A stretch of DNA of 63,564 nt, counting the filler, from Reclinomonas americana ATCC 50394 (lineage: Eukaryota), in the NCBI GenBank assembly GCA_048213135.1. It is 9 parts of 9 records of this genome, joined end to end, with 100 filler letters (N's around TTAATTAATTAA, not from the genome) between each part and the next. Parts side by side here need not be neighbours in the genome. Positions count along the whole stretch, not along the records: positions 2,414 to 8,712 come from AFZH01016771.1; positions 8,813 to 14,368 come from AFZH01016772.1; positions 14,469 to 15,633 come from AFZH01016774.1; positions 15,734 to 35,391 come from AFZH01016775.1; positions 35,492 to 52,932 come from PS016116.1; positions 53,033 to 55,432 come from AFZH01016780.1; positions 55,533 to 59,960 come from AFZH01016783.1; positions 60,061 to 63,564 come from PS016118.1; 1 more part is not named here. The stretch is one strand, 5' to 3'. The notes below the pieces were generated by a model. The model was not told the DNA's origin, did no database searches, and saw only the letters and a program-made list of their open reading frames with translations. Shown here piece after piece: positions 3,563 through 62,389 of the stretch; position 1 is the stretch's first letter, and each line of letters starts with the position of its first letter. The position numbers and the translations under genes were made by a program.

Positions 3563-6500
3563 ATGGGCATCTCGACGTCGTTTGAGTCGCTGTGGGCACT
3601 GTGTGATCCCTCCACTGGCACTCTCCATGTGCATGGAGTGGTGCCACCTCATAAGAGGTTCGCCAAACACACTCACGCAAGCACAAACTCTCTCTCTCTC
3701 TCTCTCTCTCAAAAGCACACACACTAACACGCTCCTCTCCTTGTCACTCACTCGCTCGATCACCATCCCTTCCCTCCCTTCCCTTCCCTCCTGTCTCCTT
3801 CCCTCTCTCGTTTACTCCCCACTCACTCACTCTCTCTCTCCTCACTCTCTCCTTCTTCTCCCTCCCCTCCCCATCTCCGTCCCTCTCCCCTTCCCCTTCC
3901 CTCCCTCCCTCTCACTCACTTGTTTCCCGCAGACCGGCACTTCACGCAGTACTGGACGCCATTGATGCCGAATGCAGTGACGTGGTGCACAAGGTTCACT
4001 CCCTTGCCATTCTGCTGCCGCTTTCCATCACGTTTCATCTCACTCAGGCGACGAGTGCAGATTACGTTGCAGGTCACGTACAGCAACTTTGTGCCGGTGC
4101 GCAGTGCGTTGAGTGGTTGGCGCTTCTCCGATGGTCAGTGGCGACCGCTGTTACAGCGACCGCCTGACTTTAAGCGATTGTGGGATGCTCCGAGACCACC
4201 CAGTGCAGCGGATTGCAGGTGGGAGAAAGGAAGAGGGAAGAGGGAAGAGGGAAGAGAAGGGAGAGGGAAGGGGGAAAGGGGGGAGGAAGAAAGAGGAGAT
4301 AGGAAGTTTCTCCTGCTTGATGTCGCTGTGCTCCGTACTGTCGCTATGCTCCTATCGTCGATATGCTCCTTGTCGTCGCTGTGCTTCTTCTGATCGTTGT
4401 GCTCCTTGTCGTCGCTGCGCTCCTCGTCGCCACTGCTCTCCTGGTCATCGCTGTGCTTCTTGTCGTTTCTATGATCTTTGTCGCCGTGCTCCTTGCTGTA
4501 CTGTTCTCTTTGTCGTCAACTCTCCTCGTTGTCAGTGCTCTGCTTGTCATCGCTGTTCTCCTTCCTGACGCTGTGTTTTTTGTCATCGCTGTGCTCCTTG
4601 CCTTACTGTTCTCCTTGTCGTCGCTGTGCTCCTTGTCGTCGCTCTTCTCTTCATTGCCACTCTTCTCCTTGTCGTTGCTGCGCTCCTTGTCTTCGCTGTG
4701 CTCCTTGTCGTCGCTGTACTCCATGTCGTCACTGTGCTCCTTGTCATCGCTGGTCTCCTTGTCGTCGATGTGCTGCTTTCATCTCACTCCGCTCCTTGTT
4801 GTCACTCTTCTCCTTGTCGCCTCTCAGCGCCCCCTCTGGCAACCTTGTGGAACTCCTGGCGTCACAAGTGGATACGCAACAAGCAGCGGCAGGAAAGAAG
4901 AAGAAAGCCCTCCGACTTGTCACCTACAACGTGTGGTACGATCGGCGAGAGACCAAGGCACGCATCAACGCCCTTTTGCGCATCGTGGCCCGCGAAGATC
5001 CCGACGTGGTGGCCTTCCAGGTCCGTGTGCCCACCACACCTCCTCCCTGTGTCAACTTGCTTGTCTCATTTCTTGAGTGACTGGCAGGAGGTGTCATCCA
5101 CCGCCATGAAGGTTCTGTGCGAGAACAAGTTCGTGCAGCAGAACTACGACCTGTCGGAGATTGGTGGAGCGTCGTTTGAGCCATACGGACTGGTGATGTG
5201 CGTCAAGCGGAAACACCATGTTGTCTCGGTGGCCAGATACACGTTGCCGACGGTGCTCGTTGAGTATGCAGGAGGGAGGAAGGGAGGGAGGGTTGTCACT
5301 CGGTGTCTCGTGAGTCACGACTCCTGTGCCTCTTGCACGCTTTCTCTCCGCGCCACTCCCACTCTCTCCTTCGTTTTCGTCGGCTTACATTCCTGTCTCT
5401 CAGGACCGCTACCTGCTTGTAATGTGTTTGGAAACCGCTGATACACACACCCGTGTGTGTGTCGGCACTGCTCAGCTGGAGAACTTGGCATTGCAGCAAA
5501 CGGTACGTATTCTTGTCTGCTGTCATATGTTCTCCTCTTCCTCTTCGCCCTTCCCTCATTTCCTCCACTCGCTCTTCTCCTTCTCTCTTGCACTTCTTGC
5601 TGCTCTCTTGTCGCTTTCTCTCTCGCTGCTCCTCCTCTCGCTGCCCCTTTCTCTCTTCTCCTTTCTCTCTCCCCCTTTCTCTCTGTTCTTACTCGCTGTC
5701 CCTTTGTCTCGCCCCTTTCTCTCCCCGCCTGTCACTGGTCCCCCTTCTCGCTCCCTCTCGCTCTCCCTTTTCACCTCTCCCCTTGCACTCTCCCGTTTTT
5801 ATCTCACATTTCTCTCTTTCCCCTTACCACTCACCCCTTCACTATCCTTTTCTCTCCCACTTTCCTCTCACCCTCTCCTCCCTTTCTCTCCCTCCTCGCC
5901 TTCTCCTTCTGGTCCCCTTTCCTCCCCTTCTCACCCACCCGCCCTCTCAGCGACGCGAACAACTCAACGTGGCCTACGACATCCTGCGCAAATCACGAGC
6001 GGAAGTCGCCGTGCTGATGGGCGACTTTAACTTTATGAGCGAGTCGGAGAGCAAGTGTCTGCCCATGGACTTTGTGGACGCGTGGCGCGCAGTGCACGTT
6101 GGCGAGTGTGCAACGGGCATTCATGCGGTATCTTTTATTCGCTCCCCTAATATCTTCGCTGGCACGAGGTAAGCTGACGTGTTGCATAGAATGCCGGTCG
6201 GGGAAGCCAGTCCAGTTTCGCTCCGCTGGAGAGTCACGTTGGAGTGCCGGAGGCGGCGCCCAGGTAGAGTGATGTGGGAGGAGTGCGAAGAAATTGTTGT
6301 CGTGATGCTAACTTGTCAAGTGTTAGATCGCAACACCGGTCGGTCGAGATGCCTCCGATTGTGCCTCTCGGGCAGATGGTGAGCCGAGCGTGCATTACTG
6401 CTCACTCTCCACACCTCCTCACTGCGTTTCTTTGTCTGCACAAGGATGTTCGGCCGTCGATGCAGTCGCTTGTCGAGAGGCGCATGCTCGAGCGGCGCAT

Positions 6501-7886
6501 GTCGGCACTGTTGACGCCCAACGACAAGGCCGCACAGGGCGGTAGCACGTACGACTGCTTCCGCAATCTCATGGCCAGCCAGCCGTACAGGTGCGGGAGG
6601 TGAAGTTCAAGAGAGAGAATTCACGCACTCTCTCTTGACCCTGTTGCACGCAGAGAACGCTTGGACCGCATCACCATCTGTGCCGACACGGTCATGGGCT
6701 TGAGCGGTGGCGAGGCACTGCCACTCACCAACCAGCAGAGTTCTGTCGCTGGAAGGTTTCGAGTCTCGTCAACAGCTGATCTCACCCCCACCGTCATTCG
6801 CCGCCACATGGCAGTGCGGGAGGAGCGATCGGTGGCCGCACAGCAGTACTTTGACGTGAAAAGTTGCATCGTTGTCTTCTGTCTCTCAACCCTTACCCTC
6901 CCATTGTACTGACTGGGCTTTTGGGTCGAACAGAGGCTTCTCAAGCGCACATTGACATTGACGACACGTGCGAAGAAGATGGTTTGCGAGACGTTGTGCA
7001 GATTTGTGAAGTGTGTGGTTGCTGACGTCCCCACTCGAGCATTAGCAGCTGAGCCAGTGGCATCCGAGTCGCTTCAGCGTCCACCACCGCCCCTGGTCTG
7101 CAGTCTTTCTCCCCCATGTATCGCCCTCCATCAGCACTGGTATTCACCACATATTCCACCCCACGCAGAGAAGCAGATCGAGTATGCAACCGCTCTCCAA
7201 GCAACGCAGCCTGCTGTCACGCATGCGTCCACTCGGTCGCATGCCGGCCGCTGAGGGTCTCGAGGGACCAGAGCCACCATCCGACTCGGTCTCCGACATG
7301 CGCTCGGCGTCGGTGGAGGACGTGGTGCGCACCGTGGGTCTCTTGTCGTGGGTGCCAACCACTGTCAAGGTACGTTCCGTTTGCAACTCACCTCGCTCAA
7401 GTCAATCGACTCACGTGGCGAGCTATCAGATGCTGGGAACGGAACCATTCGAGGACACCCGACAACGGTGCACACAAGACAGCGGAGAGAGTGTATGTCT
7501 GGGAGCCAGCATGGCGGTCGACGACACCGACGACAGCGAAGAATCGCGCGAGAGACGAGCACTCCGCGAAGAAACCATCCGGTATGACCGCCCTTGCCGG
7601 TGCCCACTTTCCTTTGCCATCCCTCATTTCCCTGTGTGCCACGCAGCTTCCTCTACGGTCTCTACACAATCACCCGTTGCATGTTACTTGCTGCTGACTT
7701 TGGCGACTGACTGGCGATTGCACAGGTGCCAAGATCGAAGGTCCTCTGTGGGTCTCGGACCAGTTTCGTCGCACCACGATCTGCTTGTCGCAGCAGCCAC
7801 GAGTCTGTATCCTCACACTCAAGTTGCTGCACAGCTTCGGCCTGTCTGTCGAACTGGAGCAAGTCGCTGTCAACAACAGTCAATGA
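3563..7886 (+). CDS. Endonuclease/exonuclease/phosphatase (EEP) family protein, TDP2-like, with large insertions
   Basis: Spliced motifs in the expected order: LVTYNVW, DPDVVAFQE, GTAQLE, VLMGDFN, FVDAW, STYD, RLDRI, KMLGTEP, PLWVSDHFGL. About 14 introns. Confidence 0.85.
4315..4825 (+). repeat. 18-bp degenerate minisatellite (about CTGTGCTCCTTGTCGTCG) inside an intron of the EEP gene
   Basis: The unit is directly visible many times and produces the spurious DDKEHS and LLVVA ORFs in the track. Confidence 0.9.
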
Positions 7887-8245: not shown

Positions 8246-8271
8246 CTCGTCGCTGTCAGTCACGTGGACGC

Positions 8272-12518
<4,247 letters not shown>

Positions 12519-12545: not shown

Positions 12546-12569
12546 ATCCGGCTCTCTCTTCTCAGTCGA

Positions 12570-16100: not shown

Positions 16101-19100
16101 GAGGGTGTACAAAAGACTGACGCAGCGCACATAGTTATGCTGCAGAAGTTATCGCCCTCATCTTCCCTCCCTCTCTCCCTTCCTTCCCTTCCTTCCCTCC
16201 CTTTTGCCTTTCCCTTACCCCTCTTCCCCCATTTCGCAGGCCCCACATGCGACCTGTACGTGTTCGGCTTCCCCTCACTGACGGAGCGCGCCGATGACGC
16301 CGCCTCTCCACCACCGGAGGATGCGGATGGCGACGGTGCCGGCAGTGGGGCCGAGGACGAGCCACGACTGCGCGTTCCTGCACCACGCCGCGTCGTTGCA
16401 CCTGCCTCCACGCCGGCCGACGTTCTTGCAGATTTCACGGCGTTTGTTGGCCGTCCGGCGGAGCCACCGGTGTGTTTGCGTGTTTTTCTCTCTCTCCGTT
16501 GTGAAGATGGGAGCGACTGACACAAGGTTGTGGTAATGGTGTGGAAAATAGCTGTGGGCATTCGGCTATCATCAGTTGAGTTGCTTGCTAATAATGGTCG
16601 CACCCTACCTCTTCGCCGTTCACTCATGTGCGTGCACAGGTGCCGCTGGTCGTACCCTGACTCTGAAGTCATCACTGGAGTGGTAGACACGTACGCGGAG
16701 GAGCGCATTCCGCTGGAGTGCATCTGGCTGGTACGATGCTGCACACAGTGTTGTCGCTCTCCACTTTCATCTCATCGTGCTGGTTCTCCTCCAGGACATT
16801 GACTACATGGACGGCTACAAAGTGTTCACGACGCATCCGCAGCGGTTCCCTGATTTCCCGAACTTTATCGCCCGCATGCGTGAGCGCGGAGTTCGCACCG
16901 CCTGCATCTTGGATCCAGGGTACGTCTTGTGTGCCTGTTTGTTGACGTGTCCATGCAGGGAACCTCACTTGTTCTCCACCCGCCAGCATCAAGAAGGAGG
17001 CTGGCTATGATGTGTACGAGGAAGCGAAGGCGCGAGGCTACCTGGTCACCACGTTGCGTGCAATCGCTCAGCATCTCTTGTCCCCCTGTCGTATTCACTG
17101 GCAAGCAGGCGTCGTGACGAGGAGCTTGTATCGGTGGTGTGGCCCGACCCGGCGGGTGAGCGTGCACATCCCCTCTCATCTTCCTGCACTTGGTTACTGA
17201 ATCGTGGTGTGTTCTGCTCAGTGTTTCCGGACTTTTCGCGTCAGGTCCTTCATATCAGTGGCGTGTGATGGGTTGTCAACTGGCTGATCGTGCACTACAG
17301 GAGGTGCGCGAGTGGTGGGCTCGCCTGTGCCGCGATCGATACCTGGCAGCGGGGGTACGTGTGAATATGCTCGCTGCAAAGACACTTGCTGTCAGTGTGC
17401 TCACGCAGTCTCTCTCTCTCTCTTTTTCTCTTGCCCTTGATTCTTTCGTCTCCGGTCGCATTTCCTCTCGCCTCCCCTCGTTTCCTCTCGTCTCCTGTCG
17501 TTTCCTCTCGTCTCCTATCGTTTTCTCTGGTGTCCTATCGTTTCCTCTTGTCTCCTGCCGTTTCCTCTCGTCTCTTCTTGTTTCCTCTTGTATGTTGTCG
17601 CATCCTCCCTTGCTCTTCCCCCTTCGTCTTCCCCCTTCCTCTTCCCCCTTCCTCTTCCCCCTTCGTCTTCCCTCTTCCTCTTCCCCCTTTGTCTCCCCCT
17701 TCCGTCTCCCCCTTCCGTCTCCCCCTTCCGTCTCCCCCTCCGTCTTCCCGCTTCGTCTTCCCCCTTTCGTCTTCCCGCTTCGTCTTCTCCCTTCGTCTTC
17801 CCCCTTCGTCTTCCCCGTCCGTCTCTCCCCCTTTTCTTCCCCTTCCGTCTTCCCCTTCGTCTTCCCCCTCTCTTCCCCCTTCTCCCCCTTCACCCTTCCC
17901 CCTCTCCCTTCCCCCTTCTCCCCCCTTCGTCTTCCCCCTTCTCTCCCCCCTTCTCCCCCTTCTCCCCTCTTTGCAGTTGAGCGGCCTGTGGGTCGACATG
18001 AACGAGCCAGCGGCCTTCACTCCCAGCAAGACTATCCCGCTGTCGTCCAAGCACGGTTCCGCGTACCACGCGCAGATGCACAATCTGTATGGTGAGAGCG
18101 AGGGAACAGAGTGCATTGAGGTCGCACTTTGTCGTCTCGAGGCTCACCTCTCTGCGTGCAGGGTTCCACATGTCGCAGGTGGCGTCTCGCATGCCAGTGA
18201 GATGTTTGCTGACTTCCACTCCTTCTCGCTGAGTCCACGCGCGCTACTGCAGGCCACCTTTGCAGCGTGGAATGCCGAGTCTGGCAAGTCTGCGGCCGCC
18301 GAGACAACGGCCGTCGCAGTGGCCGATGACGGGGCGTCATCGTCAGCGCCATTGTTGCCAGCACAGGAAGCACCATGGGTGCTTACGCGCAGTGGATTCA
18401 CTGGTAACGCATTTTTACGCCTGTGCACGAGCTTCAGAATTTCTTACTCACTCGTCTGCCTGGTCGTCGCGCAGGAGTGCAAAAGTATGCATGGGTGTGG
18501 TGCGTCACTTGGCCGTGTTCTTGCTTGACTGCAAGGTCGTAGTACGTTGTTGTTGACTTTATCTGCAGGACTGGCGACAACACGTCGACCTACTTGCACC
18601 TCGGTCAGAGCATGCCGACGATGATGAATCTCGCGCTGTCGGGTGTGCCATTCACCGGCGCCGACATTGGTGCGTTCCTTTCTGCATTTGCTTCTCTCCT
18701 GCACCTCGTCGCTGACTTGCCCGTACGACGCAGGTGGCTTTTCCCAGAACTGCACGTCGCATCTGCTGGCTCGCTGGACATGGGTGCGTCTCCATTCACA
18801 TCTATTCATCCTGTTGTATTTTCTTATCATTCACTCCTTTTGCAACAGCACGGCGTACTCTATCCTTTCATGCGCAATCACTCGGCCAAGGGCACTCGTG
18901 GCCAGGAGCCGTGGGCCTTTGGGGCCGACACGTGTGCCATTGTGCGTTCGGCCATTCGCTTCCGCTACCTCATCCTGCCGGTACGCGTTGACGCACATTG
19001 TTTGCACTCCATTCGGGCGTTCACCATTCCCTCTCTGTGCAGTACATTTTCACAGAGGCACTCGCGTGCTGTGAGACCGGCCTTCCTCCTCTGCGACCGC

Positions 19101-20084
19101 TGCTACTCGAGTTCCCATTCGATTTGCAGTGCCGCAACATTGAAGACCAGGTGCCGTTTTCTCGTGCTCACCAACCCCGTGGACCCCGCTCCGTCACTCA
19201 CCTTCCGTGTGCAACCGCAGTGGATGTATGGCTCGCACATGCTGGCGGCACCGATTCTGCAGGCGCACACCAATCACCGCCACGTCTACCTGCCGGCGGG
19301 TGTGTGGCAGGACATGTTCACTGGCCAGGTGATTCAAGGCGGCCGCCACATTGTCGCCGAGGTGCCGCTGGAACGCACAGCACTGTACCAGCGAGCCAGC
19401 TCGGCCATTCCACTGCAGCAGTCCGAGGCCCTCAACACCTCGAGCAGCTCGTACCTCACTCACGTCGTGTTGCGTCTCCCATTTTTCCTTCAATTCTCCC
19501 CTCAGCAGTTGCCACTCACACTCTGCTGGCGCGAAAAAACAGGTGGCGCATCTTCCACGGTTACAACACGCACGCCGAGGGCATTCTCCGCCACCGACAA
19601 GTGCGTGACGGCCAGCTGGAGGACTTCACCATGAAGCTGAGCACGGCGCATCTGCCGCCGCCAGAGAGCATCGACGGCACGATCTGCGAGGTGACAATCC
19701 AGCCGTCGGGCAACGTGTCGCGTGTGGCGGTGAGTGGAGAGGGTGGACTGCATTGAGAGACTGGAGCCTCACCTTTCGTTTGTCTCCCCCTCTCGCTCAC
19801 AGTCGGTCACCATCGAAATCAGCTTTGAGCAGCAGCCACGACGAGTGGAGCTGGTCGGCGCCACCGGTCTCGCCGAGCCAGTGGCCAACGGCGACCTGGA
19901 GCCACTGTCGTTCCGCCACAGCGTCCTCGACCAAGTGCTGGCACATCGCGAGCGCGCGCAGTCACCCACCAACGTCCGCCCCGCCGAGCTGCGACACCTG
20001 TGGCTTGTCGAGCTGCCATTCGTGCCCACCGCGCTGTCGTCCTCCGACCCCGAAATCAAACTGCTCTTGCAAGTGGAGTACTGA
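13191..20084 (+). CDS. Glycoside hydrolase family 31 alpha-glucosidase
   Basis: Spliced motifs YYGTGERTGPL, PPLWAFGYHQCRWSY, IWLDIDYMDGYKVFT, ILDPGIK, VFPDF, the nucleophile motif LWVDMNEP, HNLYG, LTRSGF, the acid/base motif WTGDN, GADIGGF, PFMRNHS, QEPW, RPL, VYLPAG. No obvious signal peptide. Spans two gaps, so some exons may be missing. Confidence 0.95.
13335..13685 (+). repeat. (CTCA)n/(CA)n microsatellite in the first GH31 intron
   Basis: Directly visible. Confidence 0.95.
14005..14270 (+). repeat. (TTC)n/(CT)n microsatellite
   Basis: Directly visible and precedes a gap. Confidence 0.95.
15045..15500 (+). repeat. Intronic tandem duplication, period 243 bp
   Basis: GTGTGATCTTTGTCTCCGCTCATTCATATCTTCATTGACCG at 15101 and 15344. 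Confidence 0.9.
17440..17970 (+). repeat. C/T-rich minisatellite (about CCCCTTCGTCTTC) in a GH31 intron
   Basis: Directly visible. Confidence 0.85.
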
Positions 20085-42300: not shown

Positions 42301-45300
42301 GCTCCACAGACGGGTCCAGTTGGTGCGACACATCGACCAGCGTCTTGTGGTCGTTCGGTGAAAACTGCGATTGATCGAGGGCGCCGTTGTCAGTCTCCTG
42401 CGATTCTGGCAACATCACGCTTGGCAGAATGTACGCACCCTGCACACTCGATCCTCGCCGACCACCAACATGTGATGCTCGACAAAGATGCGCATGAGTG
42501 CACGGAGTCGGAACGGCAAACCGTGGCTCTGCTCCCACAGCTCGACCACCACTGGCTCTGCCACTTTCTCCGCCTTGGTGATGACTCGAATGTACTCGGC
42601 GCACTCGTCAAACGAGAATGCCGTAAGGTGCAGGGTCTATGTTGTTACCATCACGTGAGTCTCATCATCACATCGCCGTGATAAACAGATGAGCCGTGAC
42701 GCAACACGAAGATTCAACGACTCGGCCACGGGCACCGAGAGACCCAGGAAGCGGCGGGCCTCTGTCTCCACGTCCTTGGTCATGGCCGCGTCTTCCCATT
42801 GCGTGTAGTTGCACGTCAGTGCCATAAAGGGGAGACGGTCGGTGGTCACTGGGAACTCGCCGAGCGGCGTCTCGGAGTAGTTGAAGGTGAGGAAGCGCTT
42901 GAGTAGCGCGTGCGACTCGGCGTCCATGAGTGATGCATTCTCAAACACTAGCAGCGCAAATCCTTGGTCTGCAGTCAAGCAACGGTGAGCGCTCTCGCAA
43001 GATAAAGCCCTCTCAGAAGCAACGCAACTGCGGAAAAGGCGGCGAAGGAGTTCGTCAATGAGCAGCACGGCTACATCATGTCGATACGCCTCGATTTCCT
43101 TCTCCGACAAGTTGCGAATGGGAAGCACCGGACCAAAGTCCAGGCGCAGAACGGGATTCAACACCGGTGCCCAGGCGGCCAACTTGAATGTCTTGAGAAG
43201 CAGCAGCACCAGATTGCTCGGCACAAACGGCACGCTCGGCGTCAGGTCCTGACCACGTCTGTAGTATGTACACAAAAAAGCCGGTGAGTGTGTCGACATA
43301 ATGCCACCGATTGCACACTGAACAGACAGACCGCTTGGGACCAGAGGCCGCCACTGGTGCCTTTGGCTTGTAGTTCATGTTGTGAAGTCGCTCCAGTAGG
43401 GACATGAGAGGTCGCGACCACACTGCGTAGGGCGTAGTGTGGTCGAATGCACTGCTCTTGCACACCACCAGAGGCAGCCGCTATTCATCGGGGAGAATGA
43501 GTCTTTTCTGAGGGATTATAACACATTCCAGTGACTGTTGGAACTCACCGCGTCCTTTTCGCTCATCACCGCAACAAACTTGTGCATCAGCGTGTGGCAG
43601 CCGACGCCCTGAATGCCACTAATCGTACACACACGACCGACAATGGGAAGGCGCTCCATCGGCGGTGCCGAACTCTGGCGACGCGAATCGCGCGCCGAAC
43701 CACGACTGTTGGCAAACGAGTGTGAGTCAGCATCACTCCAACAACAGCTATACATACAACAAGAGGAAGACCACACACACACGAACCTGCTGGTCAGTGG
43801 TCGCGCGGATGCGGCCGACCGTCGTGCACTGACGACGTTGCTGCGACGTGCCGAGCTGGACTCGTTTCTCGTGGCGATAACTCTTCTCCGATCCTCGGCC
43901 AGCGTCTCCACGTTCTCCAGCGTGCGCATGAGAACTTCGAGCTCCGTAGCGCGACCAGCTGCGCAGATGGACACAAGTGAGCGGGGGCAATGTTGGTGCT
44001 TACGCGCTGAGCAGGCAAGAGACTGCATACCAAAGTGCTCGAGCTCGGTGGTTCCATTCTCTACTCTGAACTCAAAGTTCTTGTGACTGTTGAAGTCGTT
44101 CTCCGGGTCGTGCACCACTTGGTACACCTTGACTGGGTCGGCCTTGCCTGTTGTGAGGAAAGGAAGGAATTTAGGCATGAGAGCATTGCCGCCGCAAGTG
44201 AATCTACTATCGTCACGCACCTTTAAGGACAAGCGACATGGGATCGTTCACGAGCTTGAAATCACTTCCGGCAATGGTGTCGTCGGTGAGTGATGACTCG
44301 CAGCATGAGCTGAGGCACAACGCAGGCAACAAGACTTTGGATCCATCTGCTCACGGAAGGATTAGGCGGGGAGGGTCCTCATTCAGGAGATGCATGCGCA
44401 CACTTACCTTTTTGCACATTGTACTCGGGATTGTCCTTCATGTATCGCATTACACCCATGACACGAGCGGCCGTGTTGACCACATCGCCCAGCAGCGTGA
44501 ACTCGCTGCGGAACTGGTTTCCAGTTGGGCCAGTGTACGCGGTGCCGTTGCTGTGCAGGATAGACAATTGGGTGGCAATGATACGAATGGAAGAAGATAA
44601 AAGTTGAAGACGCACGCGACACCGGCAACCACATCCAACCCGAGTTCCGTCAGTGCCTGCGTGATGCGCGATGCGGCGTATACGGCTCGCTGGTTTTGCG
44701 CTGCGACGAACAACAGTGAGCAGAAATGCTTGCAACGCAGATGCCGATGCTGACAAGGGACGGCGCACCGACTTGGGAGCTGGCAGAGAGGCCAAACACA
44801 ATGAGCATGCCAGCGCACTTCTCGTCGGAGAAGAGGTTGGACGTGAACGCCTCCAGCAGAGTTGCTGCTTGCTGCGTCAGATACACGCCTTGATGCATCA
44901 TGCTGCGGTGTGGCACGTGAGTGAGTGACGACGGATGCGCGAGCGAAAATCACACGAGAATAGCGGCCAACATGCCTCTGCTTGCCAGTGGCCAGTTTGG
45001 ATGTCGCAATGGGATCGTTCGAGAAGGCCAGGAAGACGACCGAGACGTTGCGGAGAGTTGGTGTGAACTGACCACTGAAGGAACGCATCGAGTCCAGCTG
45101 CTTGTCGCCGAGCTGATTCAGCAACGTGAGAGCGCCCTCTGGATGCTCCATGTCGCTGCGATGAAGTTTTCGCTCTGCACGTGACATGTTGGGAATGAGA
45201 ATGAGCTTCCTTGGTTTCGACGGGAGTTGCTGACACTGACACGCACCCGAGGTTTCTTGAATAAAGCCGACACCAAAGAGCAACTGGTACACCATCCACG

Positions 45301-48300
45301 AACGATCGTGCTTGTGGTCCTCGTGCTTGACCGGACTGAGCCGCAGGAGACCGAGGACACGAGAAAGCAGACTGCAGAAAGAAGGAAATGCCTTTAGCAA
45401 TACACCGCATGCAGGATCACGAACGTAATCACAAACTCACCATTTTGGGTATAAACAGGGCTTGATGTAGTGCTCGAGCGACTCACTGAGTGTCACTTCT
45501 CCCTTGCCACACGCCGCCATTGCCTCCATAAGGCAGGCATATGCGTCGCCATAGAACAGATACTTCCACCGACTCTGCAGTCCACCGACAAATGTGGCTG
45601 TCACCTTGCCGTACGCGATACCTGCGTCATCCAGTGAGCAACATATGGAGATACCTTGCACTACGCATGGTGGTGGTATGGTTAGCGTACCAATGTGCAC
45701 CATGAGGTGCGCCGTGTCGGACTCGTAGCAACCGGCCTCACGCATCAGTCGAGCGGCGCACAGGCACGCTCGAACGGCCGCACAGTTCATGTGCTCAATC
45801 ATCGCCATCGACTCCTCCACCGTCTCAAAGGCCTCCAGCATGGCCTCGCCTTTGCGCTGCGCTCGCAGCGACTCCACAAACATCAATACTTGTTCTTGAC
45901 AGAAGCGCTTTGTTCGCTTCGTCTCCGCCCGCTGTAATTGTGGCTCACAGTCAGCTTCAGCAGCAGGCGGCGATCGTCGACAAAGTGGATCATATGTGCA
46001 CGCAACGTCGTTGACAAAAAACACCACCACAGCGTCGCCGACAAAGTTGAGAATGTCGCCACCGCACTCCAACACAATCATCAGCAGCAAGCAGAAGTAC
46101 TCGTTGATGACAGTCGACAGCTGCTCCACGCCCTCGGCGCCCAGGGCGCACAGCGTTTCGGTGAGAGCTGTAAATCCACTGATATCGACCAGCATCAGAG
46201 CGCCCTCCATCTCGCGTCGAATGTTGCTGCCAAAGGTCGTGCGGCCCAACTTGACCATCTCCGACACAATATCTTGAATGCACAGTGGAACGTTGATGCT
46301 GTGCGCCAAGCGAGTGCCGATTGTCGTCAGTCGGGAGCCGCACACACAACGTGCAGAGGAGTCGGCACACATGCACTCACCGAACATCGACCATGTCTTT
46401 CTCGGGTCCCTCACGCGGGGCACCGACCGGTGGTGAAAACATGGTCTCCAGGTGGGCGGTGAGCTTTGTGCGTGCACCCGGACGTCGCACACCGAGGTCG
46501 CTGGTCTCGGAGCCGAGCACCGAAGAAAAATCAATCTCTGTGCTGGAAGAGGCTGCTGACCGGCGGTCGTCGGCAGCCGATATCGGGGAGTAGACCTTGG
46601 CAAACTCGCCCTCCTTCTTTGTCGACGACGCTGCATCCTCTTCCTCGCCTTCGACGCGGAACGAGACATCGCGACGCTCGTCGTACTCCACTGGCGCCGA
46701 TGGCAGGCCGTTTCTGAGGAATGCAGTCAGCAAACAGTCGGGGAGCGAAAGTGTTCGTGCGCTAGCCAGCCTACCGACGGAGTGTGGCAATGTGATTCGA
46801 ATCAGAGCTGCCGCCCTTTTTCGATCTGTGCACGTCACGTGAGCCATACGGCAAGAGTGGATGGCACGAAGGCAGTGTCACGCAACTTGCGATACCAGTG
46901 CGGAGACATGCTGGGTGGTGGGGGCGCCTTGCGCACCGCCATCAGCAACTCCTTCTCACTCTCTGTCTCACCCGCAACGTCGCTATCAAAGCGGTCACCA
47001 CCAGGAAGGGGTATGGGTTCCACCGACATGGCGCCAGTCTGACTCGAGTCGTCGAAAATCGCCGTTGTCGGCAACACCATGGTGATCGACTGTGGACCGG
47101 CAGAGTGCATTGCTGGACTGCCTTCACTGGAAGCCTCTCCAATTGAGCCACTCGGCGATGGCGTGCTGCGCAAGCCACAAATAAAAGGATGAGATCCTCA
47201 CAACTCTGTGCGTAACACCGTAGTCTCATCACGCAACGCGCTGTCGCGACTCCCAATCTCAAGGTCGGGTCCATCGCTCTCGGGTGTATTGCGGCCCTTG
47301 CCATCGTGACTGTCGCGACTCCGGCCACTGACACTGCTTGATCGAGTGCCAAACTCCACCTCGTCGTCATCATCCTCCAGGCGCTCTGTGCGCAGCACGA
47401 TTTCGGGTGCATCCAACTCGTCGACCTCATCCGGCGGCAGCTTGAATGCAAGATCGTCCTCCTTGAACGTAAAGTTGCCAAAATGCAGCACATTGCCCGT
47501 CGTGCGAGCCTTTTCTGGCGGCGTGGCAGAGCCACCCAGTGCGAATCCCGACCAGCGAGCCATGTTTGCCATCGGGCCCACAGCAAGCATCGATCCACGA
47601 ATGTCGTCAATGGCGTCGGAGCCCAGCAGTCGAGCACGTGTACGCGCCTGGATCGCCGGGTCCAACAGGCCAATGCCAGACGGCAACTCCGACACCTTCG
47701 TGTCGAGCGCATACGGGCGTGGCTCTGGTGGATCCCACGATGCATTGATCGGCACCGTGCGCTGCAACAACCAGCCAAGTTCGGCCCACGCATCAATGTC
47801 CACGGTACGTCCCGGTGATATGCCACGCGTCAACACGAGCTGCTCTTCGGTGGGAGGGTTTGGCATCCTTCGCGTCATTGTCGGCCCCGCCGTGGATGGT
47901 CGGCATCCAGCGAGTGCTCTCGCCACGGCAGCGGCGCTCGGTGGTGCCACTGGTCTCGGCAGCAGCGGGTTGTCGTCCTCAGTCGGCTCAGCTGGCGGTG
48001 CGACTTCGTCGGCAGTGGCGGTCGTGCGCACACTCAGCTGCGGAGTCGTCGCCAGCGACATGGTTTGCAGGAGCTTACTGTGCTCCAGTGGTGGTGGCAT
48101 GAGGCCCCCGCGCGCCGATGTCATTCGTGACGGCATGGTGTCCACGAATGTCGTCGTCAGTGTGTCGTCGTCCCTGCGGTTGCGCGAACAACATAAGACC
48201 GAGTACAATCGGTGAGGAAGGGAACGACTGTGCACACGCAACAAGTCGTGCCACGGCATGTCGTCGATGCTCGTGGGTCGTGGACGCCCGCCACGACTCG

Positions 48301-51138: not shown

Positions 51139-52922
51139 TTAGTCGTCGCCCTTGACCAAGCCAATGACCTTGACGTGTCGGATCGAGACGATCGAACCGC
51201 CGCGCACGTTGTTGGGGAAGCGCAGGCGCACGTACTTGCAGATCTGCTCGCCCGGCAGCGCGAATCGTTGCATCAGGTCACGCGTGCACTGGAACACCGA
51301 GAGCAGCGTCCAGTCGCCCAAGTGGCTTGATGTGTAGACCTCCACAGCCATGGGTGCGGGTTCGCCCGAGTGAATTTCGACTTGGGCCACAAAGCACTGA
51401 CCGCCGTCGGCCAGCGTGAGGTCGATTTCGGGTGATACCGTGCGGTACACCTGCTCGTCGTCGACCAGCACATTGTCGACAATGTTGTGCGGCTCGTGCA
51501 CCTGATCCCACTTGGAGTAGGCGTAGGGGTGCTGAATGGCGACGCGCAGTGGCTCCGACTGGTGCACCTGGGAGGCGACGCGGGCCAGATTGCGGCGCAG
51601 CGACTGCACCATGGGGTCCCACTCGTCGTACTTGACGTCGAGCTCCCTCTTCAGGTTCTCCTGGTCGCGCTGGCGCGCCTTCTCCGTCTCCTCCGCCTGC
51701 TGCAGGCGCAGGTTGAGGTCCGACACCTCGCCCTGCAGGGCCCCCACACGACCCTCGGCCGCGCGCAGTCGGGGCAGTGCGGAGCCATTGTCGCCGAGCA
51801 AGTCGGCCGGGATGGACAGCTCGTACGTCTCCAGCGACTCGAGGTACGCCAGCGACGCAGGCAAGCGGCGATCCGAGAACAACCGTGACAACTCGGCACT
51901 CTCGTCGCTGCGCGAGGGCGGAGAGAGAGAGAGTGGGGGGAAGGAGGATTAGTAACAGACGTGCACAAGACACAAATGAGTGTGGCAGTGCTGCGGCGAC
52001 TCACCGGAACTTGATGACCATGCTTTGCAGCGTGCGAAGCTTGTTCTCCAGAATGAGACGAGCCGAGCGAATCTTGCGGAACCAGCGCATGACCAGGAAG
52101 CGGCGCAGCACCGACTGGCCGCGCACCACCGAGTACTTGAAGCGCAGGTACGAGCGACGGCACTGGCGAGCCACCACATTGGCTTGGCACTTGAGCAGGC
52201 ACTTGCGAATGTGCTCGTACTGGTTGCGATCGCAGTGGCCGCGGAAGGTGGACTGAATGGCCGTGGCGGCAGAGTCGCGACGAATGCCGCGGTTCCGGCG
52301 GTACGAGGTGAAAGCGAGGAAGCCACGAATGGTCGCCTGCAGCTTGATGACCTTGTTGCGCACGTCGTTGTAGGCCTTGCGCGCCACAACTGCACAGCAC
52401 AGGAGTGAGCGAAATGGACAAAGGGGGAAAGGGGAAAGGACATGAAGAAGAGAGATGGTACGCAACATCCACGCCAGATGCGCTGCACCTCAACGGCAAA
52501 CTCCTGTTGCGCCGTGAGCAGCACCTGGTTGGCGGTCCATCGCTCGTCCGGATCGACACGCAAGCAGTTCTCGATAATGGAGCCAATCGCGTGGTATCTG
52601 GCACAGACGAAGATGAAGGAGGTGAGCGGAGCTGTCAAGCGATTCAGCTTTAAAAAGAAACTCACCCCTCCAGGCGAGACCAGTCGACCGAGGCCGTCAG
52701 CACATCGTCGCGGAAGGCCTCCTCGTTGGAGACGTCGAACGGCAGCTCACCAGTCACCAGCTGGTACAGCGTGACACCGAGGGCCCAGATATCCACCGGC
52801 AGGCCGTACGACTCCAGGCGCAGCAGCTCGGGCGCCCAGTACACCAGCGTGTGCGGGATGGCGGTGCCAATCAGAATCTTCGAGAAGAGCTTGTGCGTGC
52901 GGCGCGCCACATCGACCTCCAG
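51139..52922 (-). CDS. 3' half of pseudokinase gene: kinase C-lobe, IQ motifs, coiled coil, galactose-binding-like beta-sandwich
   Basis: YWAPE...VDIWALGVTLYQLVTGELPF, CLRVDPDERWTA. IQ motifs VQRIWRGFVARK, LQATIRGFLAF, IQSTFRGHCDR and CQANVVARQCRR. C-terminal KYVRLRF...VSIRHVKVIG. Confidence 0.85.
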
Positions 52923-55375: not shown

Positions 55376-55532
55376 GTGTGTTCCTCTGTTCTCCCCCTAT
55401 TCGCATCTCGGTGTGTGCTCAATTCCTTTCCTNNNNNNNNNNNNNNNNNNNNNNNNNNNNNNNNNNNNNNNNNNNNTTAATTAATTAANNNNNNNNNNNN
55501 NNNNNNNNNNNNNNNNNNNNNNNNNNNNNNNN

Positions 55533-56747
55533 TGTGCCAGCCATCACAGGTGCATAGTAGTGCTGCGCCGGGGCCGCCACGACCGGAGGTGCGGCCACCG
55601 GGAGCGCCAGCGCTGCCTGCGTGGCCACCAGTTGCGAGGCCAGGGTCAGGATCTCGGGTGGCACGCCCGGTATGACGGCCAGCTGAGCGAGCGCAGTGGC
55701 GAGGCCCGTGGCGCCTTGCGGTCCCTGCGAGTCGCGATGGTAAGAGAAGAGCAATGATCCCCTCTTGTACTCTGCGCACGCAACTGGAATGGTAGCCGAC
55801 TGCACCATCTGCTGCACGGCCGCTTGCCACGGAGCCACTTGCGGTGCCACGACAGGCACTGGTGCGCCGTAGGCCATTGGTGGTGGCGCCTGCGCGTACC
55901 ACGGTTGTGACACGGGCGGCGCGGCTGCACTGGGCGCGCCTCCCACCCCCGGTGCATACGGTCGATTATCGTAGGCCTGACGCGGTCGGCCAGCACCACC
56001 ACCACCAGCTGCTGCAGCTGCGGCTGCAGGTTCCGCACTCACACCACCGCGATGCCGATCGGGCGGAGGCTGGTACGGGCGATTCGGTTCAGCTTCGCGA
56101 TGCGGTCGCAGCTGCGGACCACCGCGTGGTGGCGATCGACTGACTGCACGCTTGTCGCCGGCCGCCGCCGGCAAGTTCCCCACCACTGCGCGCTCGAGAC
56201 GCTCACTGATTCTTCGCAACACCTCAACAGGGAACACACTCGGGTACCACGTGCGCATCAGCGTCACAAACAAATGTCGTGTTCGTGGATCGTAAACCTT
56301 GGTGCAAGAAAAAGGAGGAGTGTCAATCGCTCTCTGCATGGTGGAGCTCGCACAACGACGACGAATGACAGATGACGTTACATGTTCAAAGGCTCCACAA
56401 AAGGTGCGCTCCAGGTTGCGTGCAAACGCCTCGACGTACGATCCACCCACGTTCTTCACAATCGAATCGAGCAGATACATGGCCGGCAGCTTCTGATCCG
56501 GAGCCGCCTGCATGCACGACATGTGAGACACGCCTATTCTCTGTGCGTGCGAGGAGCAGCAACCCACCGACTCAATGTGCGCCTCCAATGCCATGACCAG
56601 CGCGTCGACCATCTCTGGCTGCGACGCATTGTCCTCGGCGACAAACGTGAGTGCATTGATCATGGGCTTGGAGTTGATGACCAGCTCGGCCAGGCCAGCA
56701 CGGAACTGGTCGTACAGGCGAGCGGCATCGCCGCTCAAGCGACTCAT
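55533..56747 (-). CDS. PCF11: PCF11 cleavage/polyadenylation factor, CID domain (partial, 3' end in gap)
   Basis: LAELVINSKPMINALTFVA...QKLPAMYLLDSIVKNVGGSYVEAF...LMRTW...VFP. Confidence 0.92.
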
Positions 56748-57318: not shown

Positions 57319-58947
57319 ATGGCGTCGGCCACGGCCACGCCGGAGACGATCATGAACATGTGGAGTGCGGATCCGACGGTGGTCGATGCGGCGTGCTCGC
57401 CGGTGCGGCGTGAGCAGATCAACTTGACCGTGTATCGACCGGCGGCGTCGACGCTCGCGGCGCCACCTCCCGCCCAGGTGGATTGGGATGCGGCGGCGGC
57501 GGCTGGGGAGCCGACGAGTTACAAGTTGTCGGCCTCGAAGGAAGCTTGTTGCGTGCGGAGAGGAGAGGGAGTACCGAAAAGGGGGGACAGGGAGAGGGAG
57601 TACGAAAAGGGAATTGGGAGTGATGTTCGTGGGAAGGAAGTGGCGTACTTATCTTCTCCTGCACGTTGTTGTTGTCTGAGCGACGGTGGAGTCGTGTCGT
57701 TGGTATTTCTCAGTTCCTTGTCTGATGACGAGTCGTTCTCGTTTCCGTCTTGCCCTTGGTTCTTCTCATTTGTGAGAAGAATGAGTCGTGCTGTATGGCG
57801 TGCTTATCTTCTCCTTCGCGTTGGTGTGGTCTGAGCGAAGAATGAGTCGTTGGTATTTCTCTCAGTACCTTGTTTGGATTAATGAGTCGTTCTCGTCCAA
57901 CTGTCTCCTGTCCCCTCTCCTCTCGTCTCGCGAAGAATATATGTTGTGCTGTGGCGTAATTCTCTTCTGTTCCTTTGCGCGTGGGTGTTGCTGGAGTCGC
58001 GCCTTGGTGTTTCTCAGTTCTTTGTCTGGAACGACTGGTTGTATTCGAGCCCTTGGTTTTTCTCATTCATGAGAAGGATGAGTTCCGTCCCTTCCTTTGC
58101 GTGGGTGTTGTTTGAGCGACGGTGGAGCGTCTTTGGTGTTTCTCGTTCCTTCTGTGCATCAACAAGTCGTTCTTGTGTCCGTCGAGCCTTTGCTTCTTCT
58201 CTTTTTACCTCGCGAGTGATGGGCTGTGCTTCGTGGTATCCTGCTCTTCCGTTCCCCCCTCCTTCGCATGGGTGTTGTTTGAGCGACGGTGGAGCGTCTT
58301 TGGTATTTCTCGTTTCCTTCTGTGCATCAGCAAGTCGTTCTTGTGTCCATCGAGCCCTTGCTTCTTCTCTTCTTACCTCGCGAGTGATGGGCTGTGCTTC
58401 GTGGTATCCTACTCTTCCGTTTCCCCCTCCTTTGCATGGGTGTTATTTGAGCGACGGTGGAGCCTTTGGTATTTCTCGTTTCCTTGTGTGCATGAACAAG
58501 TCGTTCTTGTATCCGTCGAGCCCTTGTTTCTTCTCTTTTTACCTCGCGTTGATGGGTTGTGCTTCGTGGTATCCTACTCTTCCGTTCCCCTCCTTCGCAT
58601 GGGTGTGCTGGAGATACAACAGATCGTTCTTGTGTCCATCTCGCCCTGGGTTTCTCGCTTCTCGTCTCGCGAAGGATGTGGTGTTCTCCTGTGCCGACTT
58701 GTTGTTGCTAGTCATCAGTTCATCGTCTGGTACGGATGGGTCGTTCTTGTGTCCATTACGCCCTTGGCTGTTCTCTTCTCGTCTCGCGAAGGATGATGGG
58801 CTGTGCTGCGGGGCGTTTCTCTTTCGCTGTTCTTCATCCAGTCTCTCCTCCTTCACGCCTCCACCCATCCCTTTCCCTTGTCCGCTCACTGTGCGATCCA
58901 CAGGGTGGGGCGAGCCGCAACCGAGACCGTTCGACGACCACCAGTAG
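57319..58947 (+). CDS. Small hypothetical protein (about 90 aa) split by a 1.35-kb repeat-filled intron
   Basis: Exon 1 (57319-57547) MASATATPETIMNMWSADP...KEA. Intron GTTGCGT...CCACAG. Exon 2 gives WWGEPQPRPFDDHQ*. No family recognised. Confidence 0.5.
57640..58830 (+). repeat. Tandem array of about seven degenerate units of 155-168 bp inside the intron
   Basis: GAGCGACGGTGGAG at 57678, 58114, 58281 and 58449. The central copies are nearly identical with a period of 167-168 bp. Confidence 0.92.
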
Positions 58948-59790: not shown

Positions 59791-62389
59791 ATGGCCGTGC
59801 TCGTTGACCGTGTGGAGTCGCCTGCACTCGAGCTCTCACAGCTCCTGGAGGAGCGATGCAAGATCGGCGGTCTGCGCAACGAAATCGCCGGCTTGCTCAG
59901 TGGCGGAGGCGACGTGCAGGCTCTGCGTCGTCTTACCGACGTGTGGACCTCGTCGGCCACNNNNNNNNNNNNNNNNNNNNNNNNNNNNNNNNNNNNNNNN
60001 NNNNTTAATTAATTAANNNNNNNNNNNNNNNNNNNNNNNNNNNNNNNNNNNNNNNNNNNNGCCTCGCTCGACGAGAAGTGTTGCGTCTGCTGTGCGCGTG
60101 TGTGAGAAGACAAGAGAGAGGCTGAACATGTGCACATGTCACGCACACAGTGGTTCGCGCAGCCTTTTCTGTGCTTGTGTCACTGGCGACACGGATTGGG
60201 CGGCGTGTGGATCGTGAGGCGGCACTGGAGAGTGCACTGGAGGCGGCGCGGACGCGCGCGGGGGAGGGACTATCGGAGGCCTCGCGTTTCCGCCTACTTT
60301 TGGTGCTCTACAATGCGGCCTCGGCGAGCTTGTCGCCGGTGCGCGCGCGTGTGTTTGGTGAGGCGGCGCGTGTGGCGTGCACAGAGGCGGAGAATGATCC
60401 GTCGCTGGCCATGGCGCTGTTGAGACAGAGCGAGGGTGTGGCGCAGGACTCCAAGACGTGGTCTACGGTTGCGTCGCTGCCCCGCTGCTCTCTCCTTGTC
60501 TCGCTGGTGATGCATCTCATGGTGCTGGGACACAGGTCACTGGCGATGATCGGCGTAATCTCATTCTGGTGCCGTGTGCCAACATGGCGCGGTTGGTGGG
60601 CAAGCCGGCAGAGGAGCTGTCGTGGTTGCTGCGTGCGCTGGNNNNNNNNNNNNNNNNNNNNNNNNNNNNNNNNNNNNNNNNNNNNNNNNNNNNNNNNNNN
60701 NNNNNNNNNNNNNNNNNNNNNNNNNNNNNNNNNNNNNNNNNNNNNNNNNNNNNNNNNNNNNNNNNNNNNNNNNNNNNNNNNNNNNNNNNNNNNNNNNNNN
60801 NNNNNNNNNNNNNNNNNNNNNNNNNNNNNNNNNNNNNNNNNNNNNNNNNNNNNNNNNNNNNNNNNNNNNNNNNNNNNNNNNNNNNNNNNNNNNNNNNNNN
60901 NNNNNNNNNNNNNNNNNNNNNNNNNNNNNNNNNNNNNNNNNNNNNNNNNNNNNNNNNNNNNNNNNNNNNNNNNNNNNNNNNNNNNNNNNNNNNNNNNNNN
61001 NNNNNNNNNNNNNNNNNNNNNNNNNNNNNNNNNNNNNNNNNNNNNNNNNNNNNNNNNNNNNNNNNNNNNNNNNNNNNNNNNNNNNNNNNNNNNNNNNNNN
61101 NNNNNNNNNNNNNNNNNNNNNNNNNNNNNNNNNNNNNNNNNNNNNNNNNNNNNNNNNNNNNNNNNNNNNNNNNNNNNNNNNNNNNNNNNNNNNNNNNNNN
61201 NNNNNNNNNNNNNNNNNNNNNNNNNNNNNNNNNNNNNNNNNNNNNNNNNNNNNNNNNNNNNNNNNNNNNNNNNNNNNNNNNNNNNNNNNNNNNNNNNNNN
61301 NNNNNNNNNNNNNNNNNNNNNNNNNNNNNNNNNNNNNNNNNNNNNNNNNNNNNNNNNNNNNNNNNNNNNNNNNNNNNNNNNNNNNNNNNNNNNNNNNNNN
61401 NNNNNNNNNNNNNNNNNNNNNNNNNNNNNNNNNNNNNNNNNNNNNNNNNNNNNNNNNNNNNNNNNNNNNNNNNNNNNNNNNNNNNNNNNNNNNNNNNNNN
61501 NNNNNNNNNNNNNNNNNNNNNNNNNNNNNNNNNNNNNNNNNNNNNNNNNNNNNNNNNNNNNNNNNNNNNNNNNNNNNNNNNNNNNNNNNNNNNNNNNNNN
61601 NNNNNNAGGAGGAGGCGGCGGAGAGTGCTCCGGAACTGGCAGTGCGCGCCGTCGTCGCTGCCATCTCCACACCAACGTTCTACGAGGTGCGTTCCATGCC
61701 TGCGGAGAGTTGTCTCGCCCAAAATGCTCACTTTATTTCCTCGTTCAGTTTGATCGCGTGCTGGCGCTGCCGGTGGTGCGTGCTCTGTCCGGTGATGCGT
61801 CGAAGCGCTGGGCGTTGGATTTGGCGCGCATCTTTGCCGAGGGCACCATGGAGCAGCTGCAGGCGTTTTACGGTGACGCAGCAAAGGCGCAGGCCGCCGA
61901 GAGGGCTGGTGTACCGCGCAACGACATTCAGGATCGGTTGCGGCTGCTGCAGCTGTGCGCCGAGTGGGCCTCGCAAAACGACGGCTCCGCAATGCCCAAG
62001 GCACTGACGTTTGCACGGGCGGCGGAGGTGAGTTCGTGCTGACACCCCTGTCTGGAGAGGGCAACAACCACCTCTAATTTGTTGTGTCTGGTGCAAATCG
62101 CAGTTGATGCAAGTGCGCGAGGAGGAGGTGGAGCGGTGGGTCGTCATGGCAGTACGCGCCGGCTTGGTGGATGCACGCATGAATGCCGTGCAAAAGACAA
62201 TAACGATTCGGTTCGTCTCTCGTGGCGCTCCTACCTTGTTGAGCGAAGTGCTGACTCGTGATATTTATCAGGTCGGCGGCACAGCGGACATTTGGCACGC
62301 GCGAGTGGCGGGCACTGGCTGGTCGCATCGCCGACTGGCGGAAGCATCTGCAGGCACTGGCCGGTGCCATTACCGGTTCGGCACCATAG
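59791..62389 (+). CDS. EIF3M: Eukaryotic translation initiation factor 3 subunit M (PCI domain)
   Basis: RFRLLLVLYN, AVVAAISTPTFYEFDRVLALPVVRAL, RLRLLQL, EEVERWVVMAVRAGLVDARMNAVQKTITIR and QRTFGTREWRALAGRIADW. Spans two gaps. Confidence 0.9.

Follow-up and report, generated by a model that had tools for sequence, protein, structure and literature searches.

Sequence and homology evidence for a second class of 5′ splice sites, with one extra T after GT, in Reclinomonas americana

The window analyzed here, meaning the whole stretch of 63.5 kilobases (kb; 63,564 nucleotides (nt), filler included) from the draft genome of Reclinomonas americana ATCC 50394 (assembly GCA_048213135.1), appears to use two classes of 5′ splice site, or donor, within the same genes. 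Alongside canonical donors, most often GTGCGT, stands a second class, most often GTTGCGT, in which one extra T follows the GT and the usual donor tail lies one base deeper in the intron. A first-pass annotation of this DNA had proposed that such sites form a routine second class whose tail is a common donor tail one base later, and both the tail profile and the clustering of predicted donors support that proposal. On sequence and homology grounds, the second donor class is confirmed as real, and we estimate that it provides 18% to 34% of the donors in the window.

The class emerges without being assumed. In the gene blocks, GTTGCGT occurs 24 times in the sense and six times in the antisense orientation (binomial p = 0.0014), and it is the most sense-biased of all GT-starting 7-mers in the window. 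We trained an ab initio parser of gene structure on the exons of two genes, SelO and a GH31 glucosidase, and gave it a donor model that specified GT only (the flat finder). GTTGCGT was the commonest donor heptamer that it returned (10–12 copies); 10 of the 24 sense copies were taken as donors compared to 1.13 expected (p = 5e-8), and 19 of 71 copies of GTGCGT were taken compared to 3.35 expected. Three-component expectation-maximization clustering of the 208 flat-finder donors separated gaG/GTgcGT (about 77 donors) from caa/GTTGCgT (about 34) and from diffuse noise (about 96). This first mixture was kept, as clustering iterated together with prediction drifted. A finder variant based on a 7-mer table did not generalize to rarer heptamers, and a best-acceptor heuristic was rejected because distant acceptors confused it.

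A finder with both donor models (the two-class finder) predicted 196 introns, comprising 95 canonical, 44 second-class, 46 weak, and 11 that were non-GT or N-adjacent. With the donor model restricted to canonical sites, the score was 5162, compared to 5395 for both classes, and the 32 donors listed in the first-pass annotation all went unused, whereas the two-class finder predicted 28 of them. At those 28 sites, the canonical-only model kept the same acceptor in 23 cases and replaced the donor by a GC three bases on (seven sites), another GC (six), or a GT (twelve), or predicted no intron (three). The GT substitutes had canonical log-odds of at most 3.9, and hence good canonical GT sites nearby, splicing at which the earlier annotation had named as a refutation, are absent. 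Every predicted second-class intron was given a poor donor or lost in the canonical-only run.

Two figures for the frequency of the class follow from these analyses. A choice based solely on the bases at +3 to +9 left 71 canonical and 37 second-class introns for description, a second-class share of 37 in 108 classifiable predictions (34%). Among the 28 homology-guided introns of SelO and GH31, the share was five (18%), one of which, at 19469, is weak. The initial figure of one intron in six is therefore a fair lower value.

The anatomy of the two classes shows a tail displaced by exactly one base. Second-class donors (n = 37) have T at +3 (.95), G at +4 (.86), C at +5 (.95), G at +6 (.84), T at +7 (.89), G at +8 (.41), and T at +9 (.35), and canonical donors (n = 71) have G at +3 (.77), C at +4 (.62), G at +5 (.99), T at +6 (.97), G at +7 (.49), and T at +8 (.56), such that +4 to +9 of the former mirrors +3 to +8 of the latter. 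Canonical tails are divided among GCGT (30), GAGT (12), GTGT (10), and ACGT (8). Second-class tails comprise GCGT (22), GCAT (3), TCGT (3), and others, and the best tail therefore predominates more strongly in this class. As the extra base, T alone is seen: the pattern GT[ACG]GCGT occurs 15 times in sense and seven times in antisense, and just one of the 15 is a predicted donor.

In other respects, the second-class introns resemble the canonical ones. Median lengths are 71 nt and 68 nt, respectively; C precedes the acceptor AG (position −3) in 32/37 and 61/71; 29/37 and 53/71 contain a branch-like YT[CGA]AY motif within 45 nt of the 3′ end; and the first base of the downstream exon is alike in both classes (p = 0.26). 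The GT start and AG end of the 37 classified second-class introns are given by the construction of the finder. No U12-type donor ([AG]TATCCTT) was found in either set (0/37 and 0/71), and a U12-type identity for the second class was rejected given this absence and the main-class branch-like motif and acceptor. Descent from a family of mobile introns (introners) was also rejected, by eye, as the intron bodies share splice signals only.

We compared the 32 listed donors with the sequence and with the predictions. All 32 start with GTT on the strand claimed for them. The five heptamers named in the first-pass annotation account for 26 and do not describe the other six, which deviate at the final base or final two bases: the counts are GTTGCGT 19, GTTTCGT 3, GTTGAGT 2, GTTGCAT 2, and GTTGCGA 2, while GTTACGT, GTTGTGT, GTTTTGT, and GTTGCGC occur once each. 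The preceding exon base is A at 16 sites, T at nine, C at six, and G at one. The two-class finder missed 5259, 16575, 41572, and 57548, and was wrong to miss 16575, which is proven by homology. The sites had been placed in at least 10 unrelated genes on both strands; both strands are indeed involved, and the supported sites fall in about nine genes.

Protein homology was used to fix boundaries independently of the donor tail. A spliced protein-to-DNA aligner could open an intron at any GT or GC and close it at any AG, and was blind to +3 onward. In a separate junction test, all boundary pairs within 12 bases of each intron end, with any dinucleotides, were formed and the resulting peptides were scored against homologues. 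Judged by homology, these comparisons show exact boundaries at four second-class introns, with donors at 9269, 10871, 16575, and 17053, at each of which no G[TC]-AG pair other than the claimed one has the best or a near-best junction peptide. The aligned proteins are distant: the best SelO match in the protein collections has 53% identity and comes from an amoebozoan transcriptome, and the best GH31 match has 53% identity over matched stretches and 36% by BLASTP.

In SelO, alignment to the best homologue (P0038) gave 15 introns, two of which, 33 and 27 nt long, represent in-frame gaps in the alignment; among the rest are those at 9269 and 10871, next to introns with the donors GTGCGT, GTGCGC, GTGAGT, GTGAGC, GTGATT, GTTCGT, and GTCCGT. 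The claimed junction at 10871, said to be fixed by the motif FCHG/VLNTDN, was best with 11/11 SelO homologues among 125 junction peptides. We also collected 109 metagenome SelO loci sharing a nine-residue motif by a degenerate pattern scan; none is close, and they were used for the junction motif only. In 103 of the 109, V[LM]N[TS][DE]N directly follows GFCHG; of the remaining six, one is too short and in five an intron of the locus itself breaks the run. These five loci (L003, L026, L063, L031, and L077), from unrelated eukaryotes, carry a SelO intron one base before the 10871 position and in another phase, with the boundary CATGG/GTGAGT or CATGG/GTTAGT. The junction at 9269 was also said to be fixed by a motif. 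Its GT-AG reading is near the top, being the only GT-AG pair among the four top-ranked of 129 junction peptides (score 727). The top score (731) needs TT-GC ends and gives Gln instead of His, the sole difference between the two readings, and both residues are seen in homologues.

In GH31, the aligner was run with eight homologues and chose 16575 in seven, 17053 in five, and 19469 in two; twelve canonical introns were chosen in six to eight of the eight alignments. The claim that YHQ-CRW fixes 16575 was borne out, with the junction ranking first of 124 peptides and best with 18/20 homologues. At 17053, the junction ranked first of 115 by summed score, yet was best with only 3/20 homologues. The site at 19469 ranked 19 of 118 and is not resolved by homology. 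A GC-AG reading, GTT/GC, was rejected, as its extra residue is disfavored at 10871, 16575, and 17053; at the last two, the GC three bases on, which at 17053 is the best other GT/GC-AG pair, scored 1691 vs 1960 and 983 vs 1150, respectively. For the adenylyl cyclase gene, where the best matches have 43–54% identity, a noisy spliced alignment with 12 distant homologues chose 46006 in 2/12 and the other five listed sites in 0/12. The GT-AG reading at 52466, in an IQ repeat, gives RG-F-VARK as the earlier annotation had proposed, resembling the neighboring repeats RGFLA and RGHCD; a one-base move gives C instead.

The classes differ on the exon side. G occupies the last exon position (−1) in 1/37 second-class introns vs 53/71 canonical ones (Fisher p = 9e-14); the frequencies there are A.49, T.35, C.14, and G.03 in the second class, compared to G.75 in the canonical class. 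Because the finder score behind these sets included exon positions, unselected sense counts are safer, and they too differ: G is at −1 in 1/24 copies of GTTGCGT vs 28/68 copies of GTGCGT (p = 6e-4), with 10 T, 7 A, and 6 C before the other GTTGCGT copies. The log2 likelihood of second-class positions −3 to −1 was −210 with the register shifted by one base, −270 in the same register, and −226 under background, and the local consensus AG/GTGCGT shows a single mismatch with the second-class A/GTTGCGT. The exon side thus fits a shifted register better than a bulge, because a bulge leaves the exon side in place. Of the proposed link to shifted U1 pairing, the part that stands is that the exon side fits a one-base shift better than the canonical register; the pairing itself we infer.

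We favor, with belief and doubt in roughly equal measure, the reading that these are real major-spliceosome (U2-type) GT-AG introns in which U1 and U6 pairing is displaced by one base. The 5′ splice site would have one extra U after GU, and the conserved tail, G-C/A-G-U followed by a weak G and U, would occupy +4 to +9, where canonical donors have it at +3 to +8. Both classes would be read by the same machinery through a common core, UGCGU, preceded by G in the canonical class and by GU in the second. The 5′ end of U1, and later the ACAGA box of U6, would pair with this core one base deeper in the intron, and the first intron G would take the place of the last exon G of ordinary donors. The cut would still be made before the GU nearest to the core, one base farther off in the second class. 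Such a shift needs the U at +3 to pair in place of the +2 U, and hence fits an extra base that is U only.

Several points weigh against this reading. All class frequencies come from the one window, and what points to splicing at the second-class sites is protein homology and statistics. The finders are imperfect: the flat finder, a crude hexamer model, recovered 11 of 26 homology-supported donors and the two-class finder 20 of the same 26, and the 46 weak donors among the 196 predictions are probably wrong. The contrast at −1 between the sets of 37 and 71 may be inflated by the exon-aware donor score. At 9269, homology does not discriminate between the GT-AG ends (His) and a one-base displacement of both (Gln). 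If the register is shifted, A is expected at −1, where it would pair with U10 of U1, yet T is commoner among all sense copies of GTTGCGT, and the near-absence of G there is explained by neither a shift nor a bulge. Which RNA pairs in which register, finally, we infer.

We regard it as unlikely that the same donor class is instead read by a small nuclear RNA (snRNA) paralogue, i.e., a second U1 (perhaps also U6) with one more base that matches GUUGCGU. The large size of the class, its sharp definition, and a preference of its own on the exon side are as would be expected of a separate reader. One preprint (10.1101/2022.06.08.495308) provides precedents for U1 5′ ends that co-evolved with donors, i.e., GUUUGU with U1 ACAAAC in Entamoeba and GUACGU with U1 ACGUAC in Mastigamoeba. 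Two other lineages with C at +4 in that source, Thecamonas and Micromonas, nevertheless kept a standard U1, and here the two classes are identical in all that lies downstream of the donor. We find it quite doubtful that there are two parallel donor-reading systems, with an ordinary U1 for GUGCGU and a longer U1 paralogue (perhaps with a matching U6) for GUUGCGU; a separate exon-side rule for each system would then explain the exclusion of G at −1.

The same class could also be read through a bulge, with U1 pairing normally to G+1 and U+2, one U of +2/+3 looping out, and pairing resuming at GCGU, and this seems to us rather unlikely. The tail statistics fit a bulge and a shift equally well, and the position of a bulge is degenerate with two adjacent U's, which could explain why only U is tolerated. 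For human U1, Tan et al. (2016, PMC4856993) document the shifted register and count a bulge at +3 (or +2) among the validated ones. A bulge would keep G favored at −1, however, and a simple one is disfavored by its rarity there, in the unselected counts as in the classified sets; moreover, the same-register likelihood of the exon side falls below background.

That the boundaries are mis-set and no special class exists, the true ends being a GC three bases on, other nearby sites, or UU...AGN, is very improbable. In-frame alternatives are possible at most sites from sequence alone, the canonical-only finder still modeled 25/28 introns with other donors, and the moved-by-one ends at 9269 score slightly above the claimed pair. 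The GC three bases on, however, adds a residue that homologues lack, as the SelO homologues and the uninterrupted metagenome loci show at 10871 and the lower scores at 16575 and 17053, and the substitute donors lack the +5 G/+6 T signal or have the low log-odds given above. Wherever G opens the downstream exon, as it does at 10871, 16575, and 17053, ends moved by one base would leave the messenger RNA unchanged. They require introns that do not begin with GU, however, and an acceptor lying one base beyond the conserved CAG, would put Cys for Phe after RG in the IQ repeat where neighbors have RGF and RGH, and are not supported by the first exon base, which does not differ between the classes. 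T/TT miscalls occur on some sequencing platforms and the assembly is a gapped draft, yet an extra T called in ordinary GTGCGT donors is scarcely credible, as such errors would be independent of strand, although antisense has only six GTTGCGT copies, and of the −1 base, where the two classes differ, and, if frequent enough to affect one donor in five at a single position, would ruin reading frames, whereas 3,066 nt (about 3.07 kb) of homology-aligned coding sequence have no frameshift; this also answers the earlier worry about 454 homopolymers.

The second class can be set beside several known systems. Shifted-register 5′ splice sites in mammals were reportedly described by Roca and Krainer in 2009, and a bulge +2/+3 register of human U1 pairing is said to have been described by Roca and colleagues in 2012. 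Like the mammalian shifted sites, the sites described here would be cut at GU with the tail one base deeper, the first intron G in the place of the last exon G, and the last exon base behaving as position −2. Unlike them, they have a single mismatch to the local consensus (AGUUGCGU vs AGGUGCGU) under the presumed U1 pairing, and one form makes up 18–34% of window donors, compared to about 1.5% of human donors for all validated noncanonical registers in Tan et al. (2016, PMC4856993). That paper also notes that diverse U1 registers need not be accompanied by diverse U6 helices, and gives 0.36% for human U12 introns, a class far rarer than the one here. The human bulge +2/+3 sites likewise have one extra nucleotide after GU and a tail displaced by one, but here the exon side departs from the normal register and the extra base is only U. 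As in Entamoeba and Mastigamoeba, a protist donor consensus departs from GUAAGU, and C at +4 is shared with Mastigamoeba, Thecamonas, and Micromonas; unlike the one consensus and one register of the first two, as reported in that preprint (10.1101/2022.06.08.495308), two registers occur within the same genes here. U12-type introns also provide a second sharp donor class beside the main one in the same genes, but the [AG]TATCC donor is found in 0/108 introns here, and the second class has the branch-like motif and acceptor seen in the main one. GC-AG introns are, similarly, a minor donor variant that the major spliceosome accepts; the sites described here have GT as their dinucleotide, and a GC three bases downstream is contradicted by homology.

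The genes of the window, its gaps, and the second-class introns and candidates are collected in Table 1.

Table 1. Genes, gaps, and second-class introns or donor candidates, by position along the window. Genes were placed from Pfam scans of open frames and later work; introns are predictions unless homology support is given.
Feature	Position	Strand	Donor	Length (nt)	Support or remark
Exo_endo_phos gene	~4.5–7.9 kb	+			Pfam scan and later work
SelO	8.3–12.5 kb	+			Pfam scan and later work
GH31 glucosidase	14.7–19.7 kb	+			Pfam scan and later work
VPS13	23–38 kb	−			Pfam scan and later work
Small gene	near 39 kb	+			Pfam scan and later work
ADCY10-like soluble adenylyl cyclase	40–49 kb	−			Pfam scan and later work
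Kinase with IQ repeats	51–53 kb	−			Pfam scan and later work
PCF11-like gene	55.5–56.8 kb	−			Pfam scan and later work
PCI-domain gene	57–63 kb	+			Pfam scan and later work
100-base gaps	2314–2413, 8713–8812, 14369–14468, 15634–15733, 35392–35491, 52933–53032, 55433–55532, 59961–60060
Two long N runs	37013–37943 and 60642–61606
SelO intron	9269..9805	+	GTTGTGT	537	spliced alignment to P0038; junction peptide as in P0038
SelO intron	10871..10938	+	GTTGCGA	68	phase 0; best junction with 11/11 homologues
GH31 intron	16575..16639	+	GTTGAGT	65	chosen in 7/8 alignments; gives GYHQ/CRWSYP
GH31 intron	17053..17108	+	GTTGCGT	56	chosen in 5/8 alignments; rank 1/115
GH31 intron	19469..19542	+	GTTGCGT	74	predicted; 2/8 alignments
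Exo_endo_phos gene intron	7763..7834	+	GTTTCGT	72	predicted
Intron	6863..6933	+	GTTGCAT	71	flat and two-class finders
VPS13 intron	23324..23390	−	GTTTCGT	67	flat and two-class finders
VPS13 intron	25623..25701	−	GTTGCGT	79	flat and two-class finders
VPS13 intron	26119..26198	−	GTTTCGT	80	flat and two-class finders
VPS13 intron	27371..27440	−	GTTGCGT	70	predicted
VPS13 intron	28366..28431	−	GTTGCGT	66	predicted
VPS13 intron	29483..29553	−	GTTGCAT	71	flat and two-class finders
VPS13 intron	30751..30824	−	GTTACGT	74	flat and two-class finders
VPS13 intron	32354..32424	−	GTTGCGA	71	flat and two-class finders
VPS13 intron	33748..33818	−	GTTGCGT	71	flat and two-class finders
VPS13 intron	34596..34672	−	GTTTTGT	77	predicted; weakest tail of the set
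VPS13 intron	35080..35166	−	GTTGCGT	87	predicted
VPS13 intron	35888..35959	−	GTTGCGT	72	flat and two-class finders
Intron	39193..39255	+	GTTGCGT	63	predicted
Cyclase intron	40229..40283	−	GTTGCGT	55	flat and two-class finders; acceptor AAG
Cyclase intron	42637..42705	−	GTTGCGT	69	flat and two-class finders
Cyclase intron	42969..43028	−	GTTGCGT	60	predicted
Cyclase intron	45932..46006	−	GTTGCGT	75	flat and two-class finders; directly after catalytic-domain exon
Cyclase intron	48174..48242	−	GTTGCGT	69	flat and two-class finders
Intron in IQ repeat of kinase-IQ gene	52390..52466	−	GTTGCGT	77	predicted
PCF11-like gene intron	55725..55784	−	GTTGCGT	60	predicted; alternative acceptor 55683
PCI-domain gene intron	60080..60150	+	GTTGCGT	71	predicted; adjoins gap
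PCI-domain gene intron	60468..60535	+	GTTGCGT	68	flat and two-class finders
Listed donor	5259..5265	+	GTTGAGT		motif present, not predicted; finder used GTGCTCG at 5253
Listed donor	41566..41572	−	GTTGCGC		motif present; no intron predicted within 40 bases
Listed donor	57548..57554	+	GTTGCGT		motif present, not predicted by two-class finder
Additional candidate, VPS13	33212..33285	−	GTTGCGT	74	predicted; acceptor TAG
Additional candidate	46714..46886	−	GTTGCGT	173	predicted
Additional candidate	7676..7725	+	GTTGCAT	50	predicted

The window is GC-rich (about 57%) and represents an intron-dense eukaryotic draft with gaps. Some exons are missing because several gaps lie inside genes (SelO, GH31, VPS13, and the PCI-domain gene). 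The eight 100-base gaps are each written as 44 N, TTAATTAATTAA, and 44 N. An Rfam scan of the 63.5 kb window returned 0 matches, with no snRNA family among them. Neither the organism's own proteins nor close relatives of the window proteins were found in the protein collections searched, and a metagenome scan with a SelO exon found no relative.

Further observations concern individual genes. The first long SelO intron (8481–9088, +) has the donor GTTAGGG, with G at +5 as in the normal register, and microsatellites of the types (CA)n, (GA)n, and (ACGT)n fill it around a gap. The GH31 gene (14700–19700, +) has named relatives that are bacterial only, its top-scoring match being an unnamed 957-residue protein, and contains about 15 spliceosomal introns with both donor classes present; it may be an old horizontal acquisition that gained introns afterwards. 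At 7763, in the Exo_endo_phos gene, the codon split by the predicted intron encodes the His of an SDH motif, which we take to be conserved in the family. In the gene at 51139–53110 (−), a protein kinase C-lobe occurs together with several IQ repeats and with a domain of about 250 residues at the C-terminus, for which the scan made gave no Pfam match. In the PCF11-like gene, the intron predicted at 56298–56381 (−) has the donor GTAACGT, readable as GT + A + ACGT and thus a putative extra-A version of the local GTACGT donor; the exon upstream of 56381 matches the CID domain of yeast Pcf11 (PDB 2bf0 and 1sz9), and the exon downstream had no relevant PDB match.

In a literature search that covered mainly abstracts and few subscription journals, we found no lineage with a routine extra-U donor class, and no relevant splicing work on GTTGCGT/GUUGCGU or GTGCGT as a splice site. 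The work on shifted or bulged registers that this search returned, seen mostly as abstracts, concerned human, yeast, tunicate, diplonemid, and Entamoeba systems. The organism's own genome paper could mention the class. Displaced pairing with a cut at GU is known already, which, as far as this search goes, does not apply to its use in a single sharp form, on a scale of 18–34% of donors, and with a rule for the exon side.

These findings bear on annotation as well as on mechanism. Gene finders that use a single donor matrix would mis-set second-class introns, and a standard donor model would probably err in the same way as our canonical-only run when annotating this genome. In humans, register-shifted and bulged 5′ splice sites are rare exceptions known from mutational work and proven singly. 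A genome with GU+U+GCGU at a fifth to a third of its donors would offer a natural setting in which to ask how the cut site is set by a spliceosome whose U1 and U6 pairing is displaced, what the last exon base contributes given the near-absence of G at −1, and whether snRNAs co-evolve with such a donor class. Two parallel donor-reading systems, if true, would amount to a natural orthogonal U1 and a third kind of intron beside the U2-type and U12-type.

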